DNA from: Escherichia phage Gostya9
DNA length: 64,000 bases
Strand: one strand, 5' to 3'
Sequence record: NC_047979.1
Shown: piece after piece, positions 6,734-54,121 of the stretch
Position numbering within the stretch: the first letter of the stretch is position 1
Layout of the letters: every line of letters begins with the position of its first letter
Position numbers and translations under genes: made by a program
The notes under the pieces: generated by a model
What the model saw: the letters and a program-made list of their open reading frames with translations, nothing else
Database searches by the model: none
Told to the model about the DNA's origin: nothing

Positions 6734-6859
6734 AGCTATATATTTTCGCGGGTAATGTTGAGGCTGCAAATGATTCCGCTGGTGGCGATAACGTTCGCCA
6801 TTATTGGCAAAATTATATTTACTAGGCGTAATAATCACGGGGCACAACTATCAGGGAGT

Positions 6860-6892
6860 GCCCCTGATTCTCAAATGAGAATGATTCTCATT
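6860..6892. repeat. palindrome AAATGAGAATGATTCTCATTT
   Basis: perfect inverted repeat; related palindromes recur at 7355-7380, 7553-7575 and 7588-7615. Confidence 0.7.
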
Positions 6893-7095
6893 TGACCGCG
6901 CCCGCTATGGTTAGCCTGCTAATGATTAGGGTGTTACGTGTCACCTTGCGTGATCGTTAGCCTGCAAATGATTAGCCTGCAAATGATTTGACCGCGCCCG
7001 CGATGGTTAGCCTGCAAATGATTAGCCTGCAAATGATTAGCCTGCAAATGATTAGGGTGTTATTTGTCGCCTTGTGTGATGGTTAGCGGGCTAAC
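6889..7095. repeat. two copies of a ~75-100-bp direct repeat containing 15-bp subrepeats (GATTAGCCTGCAAAT)
   Basis: TTTGACCGCGCCCGC..GGTTAGCCTGC..AGGGTGTTA unit seen twice with 2-3 tandem 15-mers inside. Confidence 0.8.
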
Positions 7096-7213
7096 TAATT
7101 TTCAAGCCTTCTTCAATTTTGCCCTTGTTTTAGTATCCCCACCAAAATAAAACGCGTTAGAAAGCGATTCAGGGCGTTTTAGGCCTATATTAGAATTATT
7201 CACTGCGTAGGAA

Positions 7214-7233
7214 TACTGTATAAATATACAGTA
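7214..7233. promoter_or_regulatory. LexA (SOS) box-like palindrome
   Basis: TACTGTATAAATATACAGTA, one mismatch to the LexA consensus; exact reverse complement of the 19-bp segment at 5484-5502. Confidence 0.65.
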
Positions 7234-7242
7234 GAATAACCT

Positions 7243-7323
7243 GGGGATAAGTCGGTGGATAACGCTTCAAAATGGCTAGAATTTTGTCAAGGCAAATCGT
7301 GCTGTTGATAAGTCTGTGGATAA
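7243..7323 (-). promoter_or_regulatory. DnaA-box cluster, opposite orientation to the 5395 cluster
   Basis: TGTGGATAA perfect at about 7315; GGTGGATAA and weaker GGGGATAAG / TTGATAAG nearby. Confidence 0.55.
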
Positions 7324-7340
7324 CTTAAATAACAGTGTTT

Positions 7341-7620
7341 CTCACTTCCGTTTTTAAATGCGAATCATTATCATTTGCACTCCACTTCTTGAATAGTTCT
7401 CATTCCACTTCTTGAATAGTTCTCATTCCACTTCTTGAATAGTTCTCATTCCACTTCTTGAATAGTTCTCATTCCACTTCTTGAATAGTTATCATTCCAC
7501 TTTTTAAATGATAATCATTCCACTTCTTAAATGATAATCATTTCACTTTTTAAATGAGAATGATTATCATTCGCATTCCACTTCTTAAATGCGAATCATT
7601 CTCATTCGCATTTAGGCGAG
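7341..7620. repeat. 23-bp tandem repeat array (CCACTTCTTGAATAGTTCTCATT, about 9 units with variants) containing palindromic sub-sites
   Basis: five near-identical units followed by diverged units; embedded palindromes AAATGCGAAT..ATTCGCATTT. Confidence 0.85.
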
Positions 7621-7636
7621 CAGGGCAATTGCCCTG
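7621..7636. repeat. perfect 16-bp palindrome CAGGGCAATTGCCCTG
   Basis: read directly. Confidence 0.7.
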
Positions 7637-7643
7637 CGCTTAT

Positions 7644-8443
7644 GTGCAAATCCGACAATTGCTCCAAGGGTTACGCGTGGGCATGTATGTGCAAATCCGA
7701 CCCATTTTTTGGTAGTGTGCAAATCCGACCCTAAAAATTTATAAATTCGTGAGAGTGACGAATCTGTCTCCCAAAAACTCCAGCAATCACGAACTGCGTT
7801 CGAATCCTGTGGGGTATGTGCAAATCCGACACGGTTTTTCTAGGATTAAGATGTGCGAATCCGATGAAATTTTTGTGACTTCGATGAGAGGGTGTGTGAT
7901 TGTATAGGTTTGAGGAGAAGGTGAGAGAGCGGGAGAAATTTTGGGACTAGAAGGATGTGGGCGCAGGATTGGTGCGGAGCACCTGATTTGCGGGGGTTTT
8001 GGGGGATAGTTGAGGTAATTTGGGGAAATTTGAGATAGGTGCAGAAAAAGTAAAATTTTATTAGCTAAATGGGGCAAAATAGCTTGACGAGTGAAAATTC
8101 TTGTGGCTCTAAAAACTCAGGCAATCACGGGCCTTCGGCCCGAAATAATGCTGCCATTTTCAGGAGATTATATGTTCCTAAAAACTTAGGCGTTTGTGCA
8201 AATCCGACCATAAGTTTCTAGAAACACAATGTACAAAACCGACAGTAATTTCTGGGAATGTGTTTTCAAAAAATGTCTTCTAGAAATAACCGCCCTCCCT
8301 ATAACCGCCCTATATTAACCGCCTATGCTAGAGTTTCTAGGAACAATGAAAACTGCCCTAGAATTTGTGCAAATCCGATGAATATTTCTGTGTGATCTCT
8401 AGAATTTATACTTATCAATTTCCTAGAATATGTGCAAATCCGA
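7644..8443 (+). repeat. dispersed direct repeat family TGTGCAAATCCGA(C/T), at least 8 copies, same orientation
   Basis: copies near 7644, 7688, 7716, 7817, 7853 (variant), 8194, 8365 and 8430; frequently followed by a T-run; one extra copy inside CDS at about 10107. Confidence 0.8.
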
Positions 8444-8495
8444 TGAATATTTTTGTGTGATCTCTAGAATTTATGCTTATCAATTTCCTAGAAAC
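8358..8495. repeat. ~70-bp tandem duplication
   Basis: TGTGCAAATCCGATGAATATTT..TCTCTAGAATTTAT..CAATTTCCTAGAA present twice in tandem with 3 substitutions. Confidence 0.8.
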
Positions 8496-8891
8496 TTAGG
8501 AGTCTGCTAGAAAGTGTTGAGCCATCCTAGCAGATGAGCGGCAACCGGTGTATCATCTTGAACACAGATATTGCCTTTAAATTTTTTATCAGTTATTTTT
8601 AAATATAAGATCCCCCAAGGTTCTCATATAGAGCTTTGCCCCCGCCAGAAGGTCTCGTGATGTTTCTAGTAATCTTTATTAAATTACCTATTGACTTGTC
8701 CTGTCGCTCCGTAACCTACGCTACAAGTCAGTAATTTAAGATTCCTGAACCACCACACCTTCTGTGTGGCAACTCTAAATGGTTAATTCTATTAACTCAT
8801 AGAGTTATGATAACATACATTTAGCTATCTGTCAACGAGAGTTTGTATTATTGTCTCGGTACAGGTATTGTGCACCGAGACTTGCAGAGTA

Positions 8892-16392: not shown

Positions 16393-16421
16393 ATTATACC
16401 AAAATTTTTAGCTGAAAGCAA
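16393..16421 (-). promoter_or_regulatory. sigma70-type early promoter
   Basis: TTGCTT-17-TATAAT on minus strand. Confidence 0.65.
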
Positions 16422-16424
16422 GTA

Positions 16425-16456
16425 AAATAAAAGCCTGATCCGCTAAGATCAGGCTT
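16425..16456 (-). terminator. rho-independent terminator
   Basis: AAGCCTGATC..GATCAGGCTT hairpin followed on minus strand by TTTTATTTT. Confidence 0.6.
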
Positions 16457-16462
16457 GCTTTA

Positions 16463-16753
16463 TTAATCTTCTGGATTATCATCCAGGAAATTTTTAATGG
16501 CTTCGTGCATGGTTTCTTTACGAAGCTGACGTCCAATCAAAATATGATTAGCTTCTATTCGACCATTAGGTAAGCGATCCGCCAGAACTACTACAGGTAC
16601 TTGGCGCACACCAAATTTCTGCATTAATTCTGCATTATCAGTCTCTTTATGGACTTCCAAATTATAGTCATTGACTACTTTATCAAATACTGGTTCGAAA
16701 AGTTTACATGGGTTACAGGTGGAACCTTTCAATAGATATACTAATTTACTCAT
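16463..16753 (-). CDS. thioredoxin/glutaredoxin-like redox protein
   Basis: 96 aa; CNPC (CxxC) motif near N-terminus in thioredoxin-fold context. Confidence 0.55.
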   Translation of the reverse strand: MSKLVYLLKGSTCNPCKLFEPVFDKVVNDYNLEVHKETDNAELMQKFGVRQVPVVVLADRLPNGRIEANHILIGRQLRKETMHEAIKNFLDDNPED

Positions 16754-26137: not shown

Positions 26138-26231
26138 TGGCAGAAGGTAGTGGATTTGAACCACTGATCAGGATTTCAGAGACCTCGGCCTTAACCGACT
26201 TGGCTCAGGTTCTTCAAGGCGCTTACCTTCA
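26138..26231 (-). tRNA. tRNA-like element with canonical 3' half; 5' boundary and anticodon unresolved
   Basis: CCA, acceptor 3' strand and T-arm GGTTCAAATCC are clear; D-arm GCC-AAGTCGGTTAA-GGC present but acceptor closure is ambiguous; overlaps 3' end of ORF 26168..26377. Confidence 0.3.
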
Positions 26232-31899: not shown

Positions 31900-32408
31900 A
31901 TTCCTGTGTCGATATTTTTAAGAACTCTCGTAAAAACTCTTAAAAATACAGACGATACCGGGAGAGTCATAAGTCTCACTCATTAAGTATTTCAAGACAA
32001 AATACAGTAACGTCTATTATTTTCCAGTTTAAGTCAAGGTGACTTAGTGGTTATGCCCTGCGGTATACTGGGGACTCGGTTAGGTTAGGGTCATGACTTC
32101 CTACCTTTTTGCTGCTACTCAACAGGAGTTATCGCGAATTACCTGTGCTATTGTGCACCATTAGTGGCATCTCTCATGCCAGCATTTCCCACTTTGTGGA
32201 TAGTTTGAAAAACTACTCCGATATGGAGGGAGAACTTCACTATCCTAGAATACCTTCTAAAGTTCTTCTTTAGCCTGGACATAGTTAAATCGTAATAAAA
32301 CTATTCAGCAGACTGGTTGGTTAGCCTGGAACCAACTACCGCGTGGTTTAGGCAGTGCGCAACTAACCTCGGAAGCTTTTACGTTAAAAGCACCAGTTAT
32401 CCAGTTCT

Positions 32409-32480
32409 TACCGATCGTAGGATTCGAACCTACATCTTCCACCAGTTACGGCTTGATAATACCGTTTATACTAGATCGGC
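32409..32480 (-). tRNA. tRNA, anticodon unresolved
   Basis: acceptor GCCGATC/GATCGGT, T-arm GTAGG-TTCGAAT-CCTAC; CCA not encoded. Confidence 0.45.
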
Positions 32481-32556
32481 AGTGTTACTACATAAGTGAT
32501 TTCCACACCCCACTATTTATAACTTAGAGAAGAATTACTCTCTAATTTATGAATAT

Positions 32557-49783: not shown

Positions 49784-50212
49784 ATGTTCAATAATGTATT
49801 CTCTAAAGAAGCTAACCCAATATTGGTTAATTTTTGGCGTACTCTTCCAGCCAACCTGTACAATGAGGCTATTAATGCTCTGAAAATATGGTGTGAGAAT
49901 AATGAAATCTCCTTTGCTTTTAAGGATGAGATTGAAGAAGCTCCCTGTATTGGTTTAATTGTGCAGGTAGAGGATGGCTTTGAAGAGATTGTCGGCTGGA
50001 AAGAGTTGGATGAAATGGGATTGGTTTTTGCATTAAACTATAAGCTGTTTATGCCTAATAAACACCGTATTGTTGTTAATTATAAAACCAGTGAATCTCC
50101 TGGTTTTCAAGTTAATGAACATTACGGTTGGTCTTACTCACCGGAAGAAGTAAATGATGGTATCCAAAGACTTCGTCGTTTTGGTTATCAAATTCCGGGT
50201 TTAACTGCCTAA
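49784..50212 (+). CDS. hypothetical protein, tandem paralog A
   Basis: 142 aa; shares EE.PC.G..L..MGL..AL...LF.P and C-terminal GY.IPGL with 50222..50614. Confidence 0.5.
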   Translation: MFNNVFSKEANPILVNFWRTLPANLYNEAINALKIWCENNEISFAFKDEIEEAPCIGLIVQVEDGFEEIVGWKELDEMGLVFALNYKLFMPNKHRIVVNYKTSESPGFQVNEHYGWSYSPEEVNDGIQRLRRFGYQIPGLTA

Positions 50213-50221
50213 GGGGGCACA

Positions 50222-50614
50222 ATGGAACAAGTATATTGGCGTCAGATTGATCCTAGTTTGGTGAAGAGTGCGGAGAAGCTGCTACAACGTTGGTTGGGGG
50301 TAAGACAAGCCTCCTTCACTTTTCCGGAGCAGCAAATAGACGATCCCTGTGTTGGTGTTTTCCTATCAGGCTACGCTAGGGAAGTGGAATTGGATTGGAA
50401 TGAATTGTCTGCTATGGGTTTAATTGTTGCACTAGATTTCTCTTTGTTCCATCCAAGTGGTTTGGCAATATGTCGTGTGCCTGATGACGGTTGTTCGCCC
50501 CATCTTTTACAGGTGGAAGATAATATTTGGGAGTACCCTCCAGATATTCTCAAAGAAGCTAAAGAACAATTAAATCGTGTTGGGATTTATGTTCCAGGCC
50601 TGAATGATGAATGA
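50222..50614 (+). CDS. hypothetical protein, tandem paralog B
   Basis: 130 aa; paralog of 49784..50212. Confidence 0.5.
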   Translation: MEQVYWRQIDPSLVKSAEKLLQRWLGVRQASFTFPEQQIDDPCVGVFLSGYAREVELDWNELSAMGLIVALDFSLFHPSGLAICRVPDDGCSPHLLQVEDNIWEYPPDILKEAKEQLNRVGIYVPGLNDE

Positions 50615-50635: not shown

Positions 50636-50663
50636 TTACCGAGTCATTTTGGCTCGGTTTTCT
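50636..50663 (+). terminator. rho-independent terminator
   Basis: ACCGAG..CTCGGT hairpin followed by TTTTCTC. Confidence 0.55.
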
Positions 50664-50705
50664 CTATGCTCAAAGACACTGGTAGCAGCATCCGGAAAAT
50701 TTTAC

Positions 50706-50734
50706 TTGCATGATGCCCAAAATCTTGATATAAT
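50706..50734 (+). promoter_or_regulatory. sigma70 promoter
   Basis: TTGCAT-17-TATAAT; followed by about 600 nt without a convincing ORF. Confidence 0.65.
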
Positions 50735-51331
50735 ATTTATATTGAATTGAGAGACATTAGTAAAAATTGATTTTGCTAATTTTTCTTAGTGAAGCTGACA
50801 AGGGATTTACGGCGAGAGGAATCGATGACCCGTAAATAGCTGCATAAGGTACGTTGCTAGAGCTTTACGAAAAAGTTTTTTCTTGTTTACAATCCGCGAT
50901 ACGGAACAGTTAGGCTGCCCCATTAAGGGTTGTTTTAACTGTTACGTGTTAGTTTTTAAACAACTAATTAATAGAATACTTAGCGATCTGCGTCCCATAG
51001 GAACCCTGGTAAGGCCTCGAAGCAACCTAGTATGAGGTGGTTGTGAAGTGAGATGGGAGGAGTGAAAAACTACCGAGACGTGATTCTGTAAGTTATATTG
51101 CATCTAGTATGAGCTAGTATATGAAGCATTAGGTGAGCAAATCTGGCTTAGCGGCCATCCTCAAGGATTTGTGCGGTATAATGAGGCAGCAGCGCAGCGT
51201 GAAAGTGGAAGTTGCCACCCCACTTCAGTATTTGCAATTAATTTGTTGAGAAATTGACAGTAACAGTTGTTCTATTCTTTCTGAATAGTCCTAAAGAAAA
51301 CTTATTTCATTTCCAACACAGGAGTATTGTT
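50735..51331 (+). ncRNA. candidate structured non-coding RNA / long leader (function unknown)
   Basis: promoter-proximal; only tiny ORFs; multiple hairpins (ATTTACGG..CCGTAAAT, ACAGTTA..TAACTGT, CCC-ATTAA-GGG); higher GC than flanks. Confidence 0.35.
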
Positions 51332-54121
51332 GTGTTTTCAATCCTACAAGGTCATGCAGGATTTCATCGCGATTTAGCCACGGGCAATTGGCGAGAAGTT
51401 AAAGCAGAAGATTATCTTTTTGCTAAAAGATTTTCCTCAAAGCATCCTGAAGGTAAACCAGCTTCAATGCCCTTCAAGTTTGATGTAATTGACGAAGTTG
51501 ATCCTCAAACCCTAGTAGAAATGCTCCCTCTTATGAGACGTTTAACGTCTGACCCTCATATCGTTGCGGTACGAGGTCGATGTCTTGCACCTAAAAATAA
51601 TGTGCGGCGTAAGAAGGGCAACTTTAATGTATCTAATCCTAGTAATATTATTGCTATGGACGTGGATGGTATTGTAGATACAGGTGGTTGTAACAAGTTT
51701 GATCTTGTTGGCATGGCTCGACATATTATTAGGATGTTAAATAGTATTAGTGAGGATATGTTTCCTCTTGATGCAGGGTTTATTGCTCATGCATCGTCTT
51801 CGGCTGGGCTAAAACCAGGTATCCGAATGCACTTAATACTAGAATCTAATGTTAAAGTAACTCAGGGTCAAATCAAGTTCTTATTTACATCTATCAACGA
51901 AAGTAGTAGACAAAAGTATGGCTTTGATATTGCCGACTTAGCTTATTACTCTTCCGTACAGCTCCATTATTTTGCAGATCCTCTATTTATTGATGGTATA
52001 GTTGATCCGTTTAAAGCGGAGGGTGCTTCACGTCTGGTATTTGTTAAGGGTTCTAAAGTAAATTTACCTAATAATCTAGTTGACTATGAAACAACTAGAG
52101 GAGAGTTTAAAGAGGAATTCTACTCTTTACTCGATCAAATTAAAGGTAAAAAAGCTGCCTCTGATAAAGTAGAGGAAACTATCAGTGAGCTAGAAGAGGC
52201 TGATGATGGGGTATACTTACGTATTATTCCAAAGCTATATCACCGAGCGTTAGAGGATGGGGTAGATTTTGGTTGGCTAGAAAAAGAAATCCGCCCAGCT
52301 TTATCAGAATATATTGCAACTAAAGATAATAGCCGTAATATTCAAGACTACTTTAACAACGGTCGAAAACAGGCTCTGAAAGCATTTGTTAATAATTCTA
52401 AACGTGATATACCCGATGTTTTAAAAGGTATTCCGCTTAAAAAGCTAGAAACTAATTCACTAGAGACCGACAACTTCTTGAAATTAAATACTGTACCACC
52501 AGAAGGCTATATGACTTTTGTAAAAGCAAGTCTAGGTACAGGTAAAACCACGGCGGTTGTGCGTTGGCTGGATTCAGGAGTTATTAAAGGTAATTTCTTA
52601 GCAGTTACCAACACTAGAGCACTGGTATCTTCAAATGCTAAGAAATTTAGTGCAGGACAATACGATAAGTCTGTAGATATGCTTAATTTTAAGCGTGGTG
52701 CTATTGACCGTATGTCCACAACCATTCACTCTTTGCATAAGTTTAAGAGTTTTATTGGTCAAATTGATGCAATCTTTATAGATGAATGTGATGCAGTAAT
52801 GAATGACCTATTATTCGCCCCGGTTGTTAAGCAACGTCGTGAGTGTATTCAGGTTCTTCGTGATATTCTTGCAACTGCAAAAATCATTATACTATCCGAT
52901 GGTGATATTAGTGCCGAGACGATTGAAGCATATGGTTCTTTGATTGAGTTCGATAAACCAGTTGCATTCTATAATCATCACCGTAAGATGCTGTCAAAAG
53001 CTCATGCTTATGAGTTCCCTGATGAGTCCAGTATTTGGGTTGCACTTCAGACTTCTCTAGAGATGGGTGAGAAATCTATTCTAGTATCTGATTGTGGCCC
53101 TGATGAGCTGAATGAGAAGGGTATGGCACTACGTCGTAATACTGGTGCATTAGTTAAAGAAATCCATTCAAACTCCACTTCAGATGTGGATATTCGACGT
53201 ATTCTGGATTATACAACTAATGAGCTAATTGATCAACAAATTGATTGCTTATTATGTAGTCCATCCGTAACGAGTGGTGTTGACTTTAACTATTTCGATA
53301 ATGTATTTGTTATTACTAGAACCAGTAATCAGGCGCCAAACATGCGTTTTCAAGCAATCAGGCGCGACCGTGGTGCTCAGAATATCTATTATTTTATTGA
53401 TAAATCCACTAGTGGATTCTCTGCGGGTTCTGAACAATATAATATCGATGAAGGTTGGCTGGAGTTAGCACAGCAATTATATGCACGTCGCAGGGAGCTG
53501 GAGTCTAGGAACTATACTAGTACTTTACGTTATTACTTGCTTGATCAGGGTGCAACTATTGATATTTTCAGTGAAAGCTGGGGAACTATTGAAGGTGCTG
53601 GTAAAGAATACACAGAAGAGCGAATCAAAGCTATTCTACATTCAACTCCTGATTATTGTGCTCCACGTCATGCGGATGCGTATGAGGCTAAACTACTTAT
53701 TGTTCGCTATTATCATCTTGAGTCTATTAAAGATGTAACAGTTGAGCATGTTGAACAATATATCAAAGATAAGCCGAATGATCGAGCTGCATTCTTCCAT
53801 AAGATGCACGAGATGTTCTGGGAAGATATTAAGAAGTGTTCAAATGTGACCATTAAACCATTCATAGAAGCTCTGAAAGGTAAGAAGAAAGATTTCTTCC
53901 TTAAAACAGGTCAGAGTGCTAACCCAAAATATGCTAGAATGTATCTTGGTATGATGGGTATTGGTAAAGATATGAACACGGAGAATATCGTAGACTGGTA
54001 TAGAACCTACTGCAAAATCGAATGTATGCCAATTCCTTTCAAATTCATGACAGAAGAAGAGAAAGCTATGGCAGAAGAAGCAATGTCAGAGCTAGGTGCT
54101 AGAAATGACAGTGAAGAATAA
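51332..54121 (+). CDS. superfamily helicase-like protein (putative replication-origin-binding protein)
   Basis: GTG start 8 nt after AGGAG RBS (929 aa); Walker A GTGKTT and Walker B IFIDECD. Confidence 0.6.
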   Translation: MFSILQGHAGFHRDLATGNWREVKAEDYLFAKRFSSKHPEGKPASMPFKFDVIDEVDPQTLVEMLPLMRRLTSDPHIVAVRGRCLAPKNNVRRKKGNFNVSNPSNIIAMDVDGIVDTGGCNKFDLVGMARHIIRMLNSISEDMFPLDAGFIAHASSSAGLKPGIRMHLILESNVKVTQGQIKFLFTSINESSRQKYGFDIADLAYYSSVQLHYFADPLFIDGIVDPFKAEGASRLVFVKGSKVNLPNNLVDYETTRGEFKEEFYSLLDQIKGKKAASDKVEETISELEEADDGVYLRIIPKLYHRALEDGVDFGWLEKEIRPALSEYIATKDNSRNIQDYFNNGRKQALKAFVNNSKRDIPDVLKGIPLKKLETNSLETDNFLKLNTVPPEGYMTFVKASLGTGKTTAVVRWLDSGVIKGNFLAVTNTRALVSSNAKKFSAGQYDKSVDMLNFKRGAIDRMSTTIHSLHKFKSFIGQIDAIFIDECDAVMNDLLFAPVVKQRRECIQVLRDILATAKIIILSDGDISAETIEAYGSLIEFDKPVAFYNHHRKMLSKAHAYEFPDESSIWVALQTSLEMGEKSILVSDCGPDELNEKGMALRRNTGALVKEIHSNSTSDVDIRRILDYTTNELIDQQIDCLLCSPSVTSGVDFNYFDNVFVITRTSNQAPNMRFQAIRRDRGAQNIYYFIDKSTSGFSAGSEQYNIDEGWLELAQQLYARRRELESRNYTSTLRYYLLDQGATIDIFSESWGTIEGAGKEYTEERIKAILHSTPDYCAPRHADAYEAKLLIVRYYHLESIKDVTVEHVEQYIKDKPNDRAAFFHKMHEMFWEDIKKCSNVTIKPFIEALKGKKKDFFLKTGQSANPKYARMYLGMMGIGKDMNTENIVDWYRTYCKIECMPIPFKFMTEEEKAMAEEAMSELGARNDSEE

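Follow-up and report, generated by a model that had tools for sequence, protein, structure and literature searches.

In the Escherichia phage Gostya9 (sequence record NC_047979.1), the gene of the helicase D2 is preceded by a segment (positions 50735-51331) that carries no conserved open reading frame (ORF). The stretch of 64,000 nucleotides (nt) analyzed here, referred to as the window, is that of a T5-like phage (Tequintavirus), and 522 records match the region with 80-99% identity, those of Escherichia phages DT57C and HildyBeyeler being the closest. Two DUF7415 paralogues are followed by an intrinsic terminator, a promoter, approximately 590 nt without a conserved ORF, and the GTG at 51332 with which D2 begins. 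In the T5 record (NC_005859) the corresponding positions are annotated as a terminator and a promoter, which an unannotated gap of 470 nt separates from T5.108, and the D2 locus lies at approximately 49% of the T5 genome. Within the region itself the public T5 annotation marks the promoter only; annotators now leave it blank or fill it with spurious small ORFs. Neither this leader RNA nor a mapped T5 origin was found described in the literature.

A first interpretation made from the letters of the window, referred to here as the sequence-only reading, had proposed a structured noncoding RNA, a regulatory leader, or a transcription-activated replication origin. The results presented below strongly support a transcribed, noncoding, structured RNA that is under selection; the origin is neither shown nor excluded by them.

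Most of the elements on which the sequence-only reading was built were recovered. Its promoter, TTGCAT-17-TATAAT at 50706-50734, is supported by direct reading, by the T5 annotation, and by conservation in relatives, and the terminator that it placed before this promoter is present (Table 1). The GTG at 51332 is preceded by AGGAG (51320-51324) and is the start used for the characterized D2 ORF of T5 (PMC3632103). The segment contains tiny ORFs only, as had been stated, the longest having at most 53 amino acids (aa). The GC content, which had been described as higher than that of the surroundings, is instead 0.392 versus 0.393 for the window (51st percentile), and the central part of the leader is mildly higher (0.42, 78th percentile of the window). 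The only strongly AT-rich stretch, 50720-50779, has 82% A+T (99th percentile of the window) and falls on the -10 element, the putative transcription start, and the hairpin HP1.

The promoter fits the T5 consensus TTGCTT-N17/18-TATAATA quoted in the AKFV33 record. It is not listed by a generic sigma-70 scan, because its -35 element matches TTGACA at only three of six positions. Judged only by the spacing, transcription would start near 50741. The terminator scan revealed no terminator within 50735-51331 or between the leader and D2. On the minus strand of the segment no promoter-like or terminator-like site was seen, which is a weak negative given that the consensus scan is crude.

A protein frame conserved in relatives had been named as one finding that would overturn a noncoding segment. 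In ten lineage representatives, no ORF of at least 30 aa on either strand was common to the lineages by position or by sequence, and the 50-aa ORF of the window type, which starts with TTG, is absent from the T5 and Epseptimavirus types. A search for known RNA families, proposed at the same time, matched none: Rfam 15 (4,227 models, including riboswitches, ribozymes, GOLLD, ROOL, OLE, HEARO, raiA, and group I/II introns) yielded at the gathering threshold no match in the window other than tRNAs, and the leader at E ≤ 10 gave two chance hits to small nucleolar RNAs, with 13.7 and 11.7 bits versus thresholds of 43 and 40. Iterons, for which a search had also been recommended, were not found in 50735-51331 either: the search for iterons and tandem repeats returned only two-copy repeats at chance level and no tandem array.

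D2 of T5 is a bipolar helicase, and the ORF cloned for its characterization opens with GTG TTT TC, the same as in the window (Wong et al. 2013, PMC3632103). The protein carries a Herpes_ori_bp (UL9-type) helicase core and resembles plasmid Rep helicases; the NCBIfam model CyRepA1 scores below its cutoff. For the N-terminal domain, a homologue search gave two fragments, a PDB profile search gave nothing significant, and a single-sequence AlphaFold model reached a predicted local distance difference test (pLDDT) score of 34. In every relative the start codon of D2, either GTG or ATG, falls at the same alignment position.

Conservation and covariation of the leader RNA

Two protein-guided scans provided 36 loci in which the N-terminus of D2 is 61-99% identical to that of the window (34 from the first scan and two Pectobacterium loci from the second). 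In each of the 34 loci from the first scan, D2 has a promoter of the form TTGNNN-N16-18-TATAAT 500-800 nt upstream, and the same holds for both added Pectobacterium loci. The lineages compared comprise two types of Tequintavirus, that of the window (A) and that of T5 (B), as well as Epseptimavirus (C), whose center is of the B type, Klebsiella phages, Pectobacterium phages DU_PP_V and My1, Proteus phage Stubb, and Providencia phages PR1 and PSTCR5.

Consensus structures were predicted with RNAalifold separately for 11 A-type and 16 B/C-type leaders, and both runs gave one architecture, with helices at almost identical alignment columns. Compensatory changes, for which the sequence-only reading had recommended a comparison with T5-like genomes, were found in all three alignments examined. 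In the alignment of the 11 A-type sequences (A2), 99.4% of the cells are paired and six pairs are changed on both sides versus 0-1 in slid controls. In that of the 16 B/C-type sequences (A3), 99.6% of the cells are paired and eight pairs are changed on both sides versus 0-1 in the controls; one of the eight is an artifact of a misaligned insert, which leaves seven real ones. These within-group double substitutions occur among sequences that are only 1-8% apart. Across lineages, a plain MAFFT alignment of nine A-type, Pectobacterium, and Klebsiella sequences (A5) showed double changes in 43 of 89 pairs (13-17 in slid controls), 89.9% of the cells paired (40-49%), and a covariation score of 0.42 (0.09-0.14) that was reached by no shuffle. 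Instead of the poor conservation without covariation that would have spoken against an RNA, conservation with compensatory changes was thus observed.

The consensus folds of the sense strand are better than those of the antisense strand (-123.5 versus -100.2, -126.4 versus -89.6, and 89 versus 45 pairs), and the predicted helices are rich in G-U pairs, which points to a transcript rather than a DNA cruciform. The folding energy itself is unremarkable, with z = -2.25 for the whole leader and z = -2.4 for the central domain. Of the single hairpins, HP1 has z = -4.9 and H17 has z = -5.6; the stability of the whole leader (z about -2.3) is weak evidence when taken alone. The case for structure rests on the comparative data and not on folding energy.

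In the predicted fold (Table 1), HP1 and HP2 would be followed by a long helix (P-long) with small bulges that encloses a central domain of approximately 290 nt, and then by H17 and the start-codon hairpin. The central domain would comprise H5, two three-way junctions, the small hairpin H10, and H16, with conserved UUAGCG and GUUGCCA loops and stems that covary.

Table 1. Positions of the features of the D2 leader locus in the window; RNA elements are those of the predicted fold
Feature	Position	Strand	Sequence or pairing	Observation
Intrinsic terminator of the DUF7415 gene pair	50638-50658	+	9-base-pair stem, then TTTTCTCT	Terminator scan; also annotated in T5 (NC_005859)
T5-type early promoter	50696-50734	+	A/T-rich AAAATTTTAC; -35 TTGCAT (50706-50711); 17-nt spacer; TG (50726-50727, extended -10); -10 TATAAT (50729-50734)	
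HP1, hairpin near the 5' end	50748-50788	+	GAGAGA.CAUUAGUAAAA / UUUUGCUAAU.UUUUUCU	Minimum free energy -12.5 kcal/mol; z = -4.9
Optional 97-nt stem-loop domain	50788-50884	+	Between 8-nt direct repeats TTTTTCTT (50780-50787 and 50877-50884)	
HP2	50889-50933	+	ACAAUCC...GGGUUGU; conserved apical block AUACGGAACAGUUAGGCUGCCCCAU; then UUUU	A5 pairs 161-187: GC to AU and GU to CG changes
P-long, 5' strand, closing the central domain	50936-50980	+	Pairs with 51227-51269	
H5, 5' strand	50983-50993	+	GCG..CUGCGU; pairs with 51192-51200	
Three-way junction 1	50994-51057	+	H6 (50994-50998/51053-51057), H7 (51005-51014), H8/H9 (51016-51052)	H6: G-C to A-U
H10, small hairpin	51059-51074	+	GGAGU-GAAAA-ACU(A)CC	G-C to A-U compensatory change
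Three-way junction 2	51087-51188	+	H11/H12 (51087-51103/51171-51188), H13 (51104-51117), P1/UUAGCG arm	U-A to C-G
P1 helix and UUAGCG hairpin	51138-51171	+	P1 51138-51144/51165-51171; hairpin GGC-UUAGCG-GCC (loop 51148-51153); 8-nt 3' internal loop	
H5, 3' strand	51192-51200	+	GCGCAGCGU; pairs with 50983-50993	
H16	51203-51225	+	AAGUGG/CCACUU; 11-nt loop with GUUGCCA (51211-51217)	U-A to G-C compensatory change
P-long, 3' strand	51227-51269	+	Pairs with 50936-50980	
H17	51272-51288	+	CUAUUC-UUUCU-GAAUAG	z = -5.6; no T-run after it, not a terminator
Start-codon hairpin	51315-51336	+	AACACAG/UUGUGUU; encloses AGGAG (51320-51324) and pairs GTG (51332-51334)	-5.8 kcal/mol
D2 helicase gene (T5.108 homologue, "replication origin binding")	51332-54121	+		Pfam Herpes_ori_bp; PHROG 3712

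The elements differ in how their sequences are maintained. At the position of HP1, the Klebsiella, Pectobacterium, Proteus, and Providencia leaders have a 5' hairpin of other sequence. The HP2 block AUACGGAACAGUUNGGCUGCCCCAU hardly varies among leaders with D2 identities as low as 67%. P-long has approximately 38 pairs in A2 and 35 in A3, 99-100% paired, with double changes in six of its ten outer pairs across lineages; at one of its positions the window pairs G with C, T5 pairs G with U, and most other B/C-type sequences pair A with U. H5 shows double compensatory changes both in group A (CUGCG/CGCAG to CUACA/UGUAG) and in group B/C (U-A to C-G), and four of its six pairs covary across lineages.

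An equivalent of junction 1 was predicted independently in the T5 type, and in DU_PP_V the helix H9 changes from GCAACC/GGUUGU to ACAAUC/GAUUGU. The T5-type equivalent of junction 2 shows G-C to A-U and A-U to C-G changes, and H12 covaries in six of eight pairs across lineages. Within this junction, the C-G-closed hairpin loop CUUAGCGG does not vary in any lineage as far out as Proteus and Providencia, and three copies of it are present in the gap of the Aeromonas phage. The sequence of P1 differs in each lineage and its pairing is kept; a permutation test on the length of this helix was modestly significant (combined p = 4e-4, single lineages p = 0.01-0.7). The GUUGCCA loop of H16 is common to the A, Klebsiella, and Pectobacterium types, and the T5 type has at this position a hairpin with a different loop and an A-U to G-C change of its own. 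H17 is invariant in the A, B, and C types, and the Klebsiella and Pectobacterium leaders have a hairpin of other sequence there. In the start-codon hairpin, C to U changes preserve G-U pairs in the Tequintavirus and Epseptimavirus types, and CAC/GUG becomes CAU/AUG in the Klebsiella phages, as judged by eye.

Two other pairings were considered and set aside. The pairing AACAGUUA/UAACUGUU (50901-50912 with 50936-50947) was rejected as a conserved state because P-long compensates a G to A change in its 5' strand that would give a C-A mismatch in the alternative. For a long-range inverted repeat, GCUGCCCCAUUA/UAAUGAGGCAGC, the variants give no support. Two observations on the same elements are recorded here: DU_PP_V (locus L038, 1905-1933) has a promoter-like site inside the 3' strand of P-long, and a hairpin on the minus strand of the window (16400-16480), AAGCCTGATC-TTAGCG-GATCAGGCTT, forms a perfect stem followed by a T-run (a terminator) and then by a T5-type promoter, its C-UUAGCG-G loop being identical to the conserved hairpin loop of the leader.

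The central part of the leader is where the window and T5 differ most. The identity between both is 95% up to 50787, 97% at 50877-50950, 88% from 51259 to the end of D2, and 96% beyond D2, and the approximately 308 nt at 50951-51258 have no BLAST similarity to NC_005859. Over the whole leader, the window type and the T5 type are approximately 65% identical. The 5' and 3' parts of the leader are more conserved than the neighboring genes, and D2 itself (88%) is more diverged from T5 than both flanks (95-96%). The central cassette and D2 thus look like one exchanged module, or one diverged block, relative to T5, which fits an RNA-protein coadaptation. Since the A type can be aligned with its counterparts in the Pectobacterium and Klebsiella phages, it is the T5 type that seems to have been exchanged or to have diverged strongly. 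The distance between the HP2 block and the UUAGCG loop amounts to 245-249 nt in the A, B/C, Klebsiella, and DU_PP_V leaders and to 239 nt in My1. 

The window leader measures approximately 600 nt rather than 500 nt because of the optional 97-nt domain. This insert is found in 49 of about 526 T5-like records, which include both sequence types, never in more than one copy and never elsewhere; most relatives are without it. Multiple copies or loci, as would be expected of a miniature inverted-repeat mobile element, were not found in these 49 records, which have it in one place each.

Outside these lineages, distant Demerecviridae with 25-34% D2 identity also have a gap before the D2 homologue. 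Vibrio phages Brizo and PG07 have gaps of 712 and 636 nt, and Aeromonas phage TS3 has one of 1,590 nt; in Vibrio phage D153 this stretch is filled with successive ORF calls of 30-55 aa. Upstream of the gap, these Vibrio and Aeromonas phages have other genes, located on the opposite strand, and the gap therefore travels with D2. These gaps fold extensively, and their homology to the T5 RNA is not demonstrated. The PG07 gap (locus L042, about 1920-2130) contains two copies of a direct repeat of approximately 60 nt, GACTATCACTTTGTAGCCTCAATCCTCGGATTGTGTGAGTCAGTTAACTTCTGTCG.

Covariance models were built for the leader RNA. With model R1, from all types, the Proteus, Vibrio, and Aeromonas loci were without a match, and the Providencia phages gave a local match of 26 nt only (E = 2). 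Model R2, trained without T5-type sequences, found the T5 type only at its syntenic place, with all pairs of P1 and the hairpin intact, at a marginal E of 0.06-0.23; the Proteus, Vibrio, and Aeromonas regions were likewise undetected by R2. A metagenome scan with the HP2 block gave T5-like and Klebsiella-type contigs plus chance matches, and no new lineage. The RNA is restricted to T5-like phages, with hosts from E. coli and Salmonella to Klebsiella and Pectobacterium.

Possible roles of the RNA

The reading that we favor, tentatively, is that the segment constitutes a cis-acting 5' leader of the D2 mRNA, with a large conserved fold (approximately 500 nt, and approximately 600 nt here) controlling D2 synthesis. 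The RNA would act in cis with D2 and set the amount or the timing of D2. D2 itself or a host protein might bind the conserved loops, or RNase III might cut P-long and thereby remodel the translation start region, where both the ribosome-binding site and the GTG of D2 would be buried in the weak hairpin. This hairpin and the changes that it tolerates would be consistent with such control. In keeping with a cis-acting leader, the segment runs into the D2 ORF without a terminator. The strict adjacency to and co-orientation with D2 throughout the family, despite changing neighbors, argues for a function coupled to D2, and so does the coinheritance of the central cassette with the D2 gene.

Several points weigh against this assignment. 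At -5.8 kcal/mol the start-codon hairpin is weak, and its conservation does not extend to the Pectobacterium, Proteus, and Providencia phages. The Proteus phages (loci L033/L034, 1935-1964) have a second promoter, TTGACA-18-TATAAT, approximately 40 nt before D2, so that D2 there need not be translated from the long leader. Helices numbering at least 15 would far exceed the needs of known translational operators, and a linkage between the cassette type and the D2 type is expected anyway for adjacent DNA. The covariation was measured on structures predicted from the same alignments, and the sequences are phylogenetically related. Given the negative results of R1 and the marginal E values of R2, homology beyond approximately 67% D2 identity is not demonstrated, a short motif being what links the more distant leaders. 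Finally, the transcription start, the read-through into D2, and the regulation are all things that we infer.

It is unlikely, though deserving of attention, that the segment is instead a transcription-primed origin, in which a promoter-driven RNA-DNA hybrid would serve as preprimer or helicase-loading site and D2 would be the cognate initiator helicase. The RNA structure would then ensure the correct formation of the hybrid. Such an origin would be similar to that of ColE1, whose RNA II undergoes processing by RNase H and extension by a family A polymerase, or to the R-loops of T4 oriF/oriG. In size the leader RNA is close to RNA II, and it is structured, the cassette and D2 form one diverged block that resembles a module of initiator and origin, and the 60 nt around the -10 element and the putative transcription start are those with the extreme A+T content. 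Bourguignon et al. are said to have placed, in 1976, an early origin near the center of the T5 genome, and T5 also encodes a Pol I-like polymerase. D2 has the UL9-type helicase core and its likeness to Rep helicases, and Wong et al. proposed an initiation role for this protein (PMC3632103). T5 encodes an RNase H, which is listed in the same work (PMC3632103), and a UvsW-like helicase, D10; the roles of D2 and D10 have been called unclear (PMC5180179).

Against such an origin stands the absence, in 50735-51331, of iterons or other repeated binding sites, of an opposite-strand promoter-like site that could signal an antisense RNA similar to RNA I, and of an Rfam match. The AT-rich stretch may simply be the promoter and HP1, and R-loop origins such as T4 oriF do without 15 covarying helices. 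Furthermore, the strand bias observed in T5 recombineering with recombitrons speaks for unidirectional replication that starts mainly at one end of the genome and not at a central origin (PMC10055335). The wider proposal that the RNA is the replication-origin determinant of T5-like phages, in which the cassette would coevolve with D2 and the origin specificity would reside in the RNA fold and not in DNA iterons, we consider more doubtful still.

A stable noncoding RNA is another improbable but reasonable explanation. The central domain of approximately 290 nt would be released, for example by RNase III, and would have a role in trans or in a ribonucleoprotein, the translation of D2 being incidental; with the same low likelihood, it could be a partner or scaffold of D2 or a decoy against host defense. 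The size and complexity of the RNA are like those of large structured bacterial and phage RNAs and not like those of operators. P-long, with its small bulges, would be a plausible RNase III substrate, although processing at this helix is conjecture. The loops are kept while the stems vary, and the replacement of the cassette with preservation of the architecture would fit diversifying or modular selection. The separate promoter of the Proteus phages just before D2 is also in line with an RNA of this kind. However, 50735-51331 contains no 3' terminator or other defined end, the RNA is not homologous to GOLLD, ROOL, OLE, HEARO, raiA, or any other Rfam family, and a trans-acting RNA would not need to stay strictly beside D2 and co-oriented with it across the family.

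That the segment is a nonfunctional spacer or a remnant of mobile DNA, with the long inverted repeat as decayed insertion ends and incidental hairpins, is very improbable. The 97-nt insert between direct repeats, the homing endonuclease genes inserted beside the locus in some relatives, and the behavior of the central segment as a replaceable cassette are what a mobile remnant might leave, but the insert is single copy and the region persists throughout the family, with its length and spacing conserved. Moreover, compensatory and G-U-compatible changes keep 99% of the pairs within groups and approximately 90% across lineages, and the 5' and 3' parts of the leader exceed the neighboring genes in conservation. 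Unannotated small protein genes, as entered in several GenBank records, are barely credible: ORFs of 38-53 aa exist on both strands and "hypothetical protein" features lie under the region in some records, but no ORF is shared by the lineages, the 50-aa ORF is confined as described above, and the substitutions track base-pairing and not codon structure.

Known systems and other features of the locus

The favored reading, a cis-acting leader, has its closest counterparts in the operators of T4 genes 32 and 43 and in the 5' untranslated regions of E. coli rpoS and rne, which are likewise cis linked and have no terminator before the ORF, and in which the start region is partly sequestered, as it may be in the D2 leader; in the T4 operators the regulated gene is also that of a replication protein. 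The rpoS leader, of about 570 nt, is similar in length to that of D2. The T4 operators are, however, single hairpins or pseudoknots, the D2 leader being much more elaborate, and the start-codon hairpin of D2 is weak and not universal.

As with ColE1 RNA II, the leader appears to be a promoter-driven, structured transcript of approximately 500 nt. RNA II is a constitutively transcribed, structured RNA of approximately 500-550 nt at a replication control point, relatives of which differ in sequence and keep the fold; an RNase H is available in the phage, together with a Pol I-like polymerase. However, sequence and Rfam comparisons show no similarity to RNA II, nothing points to an RNA I gene, the hybrid and the origin are hypothetical here, the leader RNA runs straight into an ORF, and a lytic phage has no obvious need of copy number control.

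The T4 origins oriF and oriG and the T7 primary origin share with the locus a strong promoter and an A+T-rich stretch beside replication genes, and T5 has the UvsW-like D10. In those origins a promoter and an unwinding element suffice, without a large conserved RNA fold, and the T5 strand-bias data argue against a dominant central origin (PMC10055335). For herpes simplex virus 1 (HSV-1) oriS, the likeness lies in the UL9-type helicase core of D2. UL9 recognizes a hairpin form of its origin, which is a precedent for a folded nucleic acid beside an initiator gene. oriS is, however, a short DNA palindrome with repeated UL9 boxes, whereas the leader has no repeated boxes and its predicted fold is strand specific with many G-U pairs, pointing to RNA.

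GOLLD, ROOL, OLE, HEARO, and raiA resemble the leader in their 400-600 nt, many covarying helices, multiway junctions, and conserved loops, and GOLLD and ROOL also in being present in phage genomes. They differ in that no covariance model matches the leader at E ≤ 10, and in that the leader is away from tRNA genes, would form the 5' part of an mRNA instead of a gene of its own, and occurs in T5-like phages only. By every test run, the leader is a member of none of the families compared and is a new family among the large structured noncoding and leader RNAs.

T5 is a classical model phage in which replication initiation is essentially unmapped, and the leader RNA offers a testable handle on the control of D2 and on the start of T5 replication. 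An RNA of approximately 500 nt with at least 15 covarying helices would rank among the largest structured phage RNAs known. The occurrence of one architecture in two sequence versions without detectable similarity, in genomes that are otherwise 88-97% identical, is an unusual natural experiment on the conservation of RNA structure and on module exchange.

The DUF7415 paralogues directly upstream of the leader promoter (49784-50212 and 50222-50614) are arranged in tandem, contain two DUF7415 repeats each, and belong to PHROG 2502, of unassigned function. Homing endonuclease genes adjoin the D2 leader locus in some relatives. In AKFV33-type genomes (loci L003/L015, from AKFV33, and loci L004 and L017), an HNH gene with a different promoter lies between the T5.107 homologue and the leader, and in T5 hegI (locus L002, 8319-8837) directly follows D2 and is absent from the window.

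The leader segment is the third-longest ORF-free stretch of the window. The two largest, counting ORFs of 60 aa or more, are located at 6734-7786 (1,053 nt) and 8078-8891 (814 nt) and probably belong to the pre-early or terminal-repeat part of the genome. The tRNA genes of the window lie at 25-32 kb, far from the leader. Rfam reports a 13th tRNA at 26141-26213 on the minus strand that is not in the ARAGORN list, and ARAGORN reports an odd tRNA-Ser with anticodon ACT at 32408-32481, also on the minus strand. The sequence CTTAGCGG occurs in four copies in the window versus 1.1 expected.

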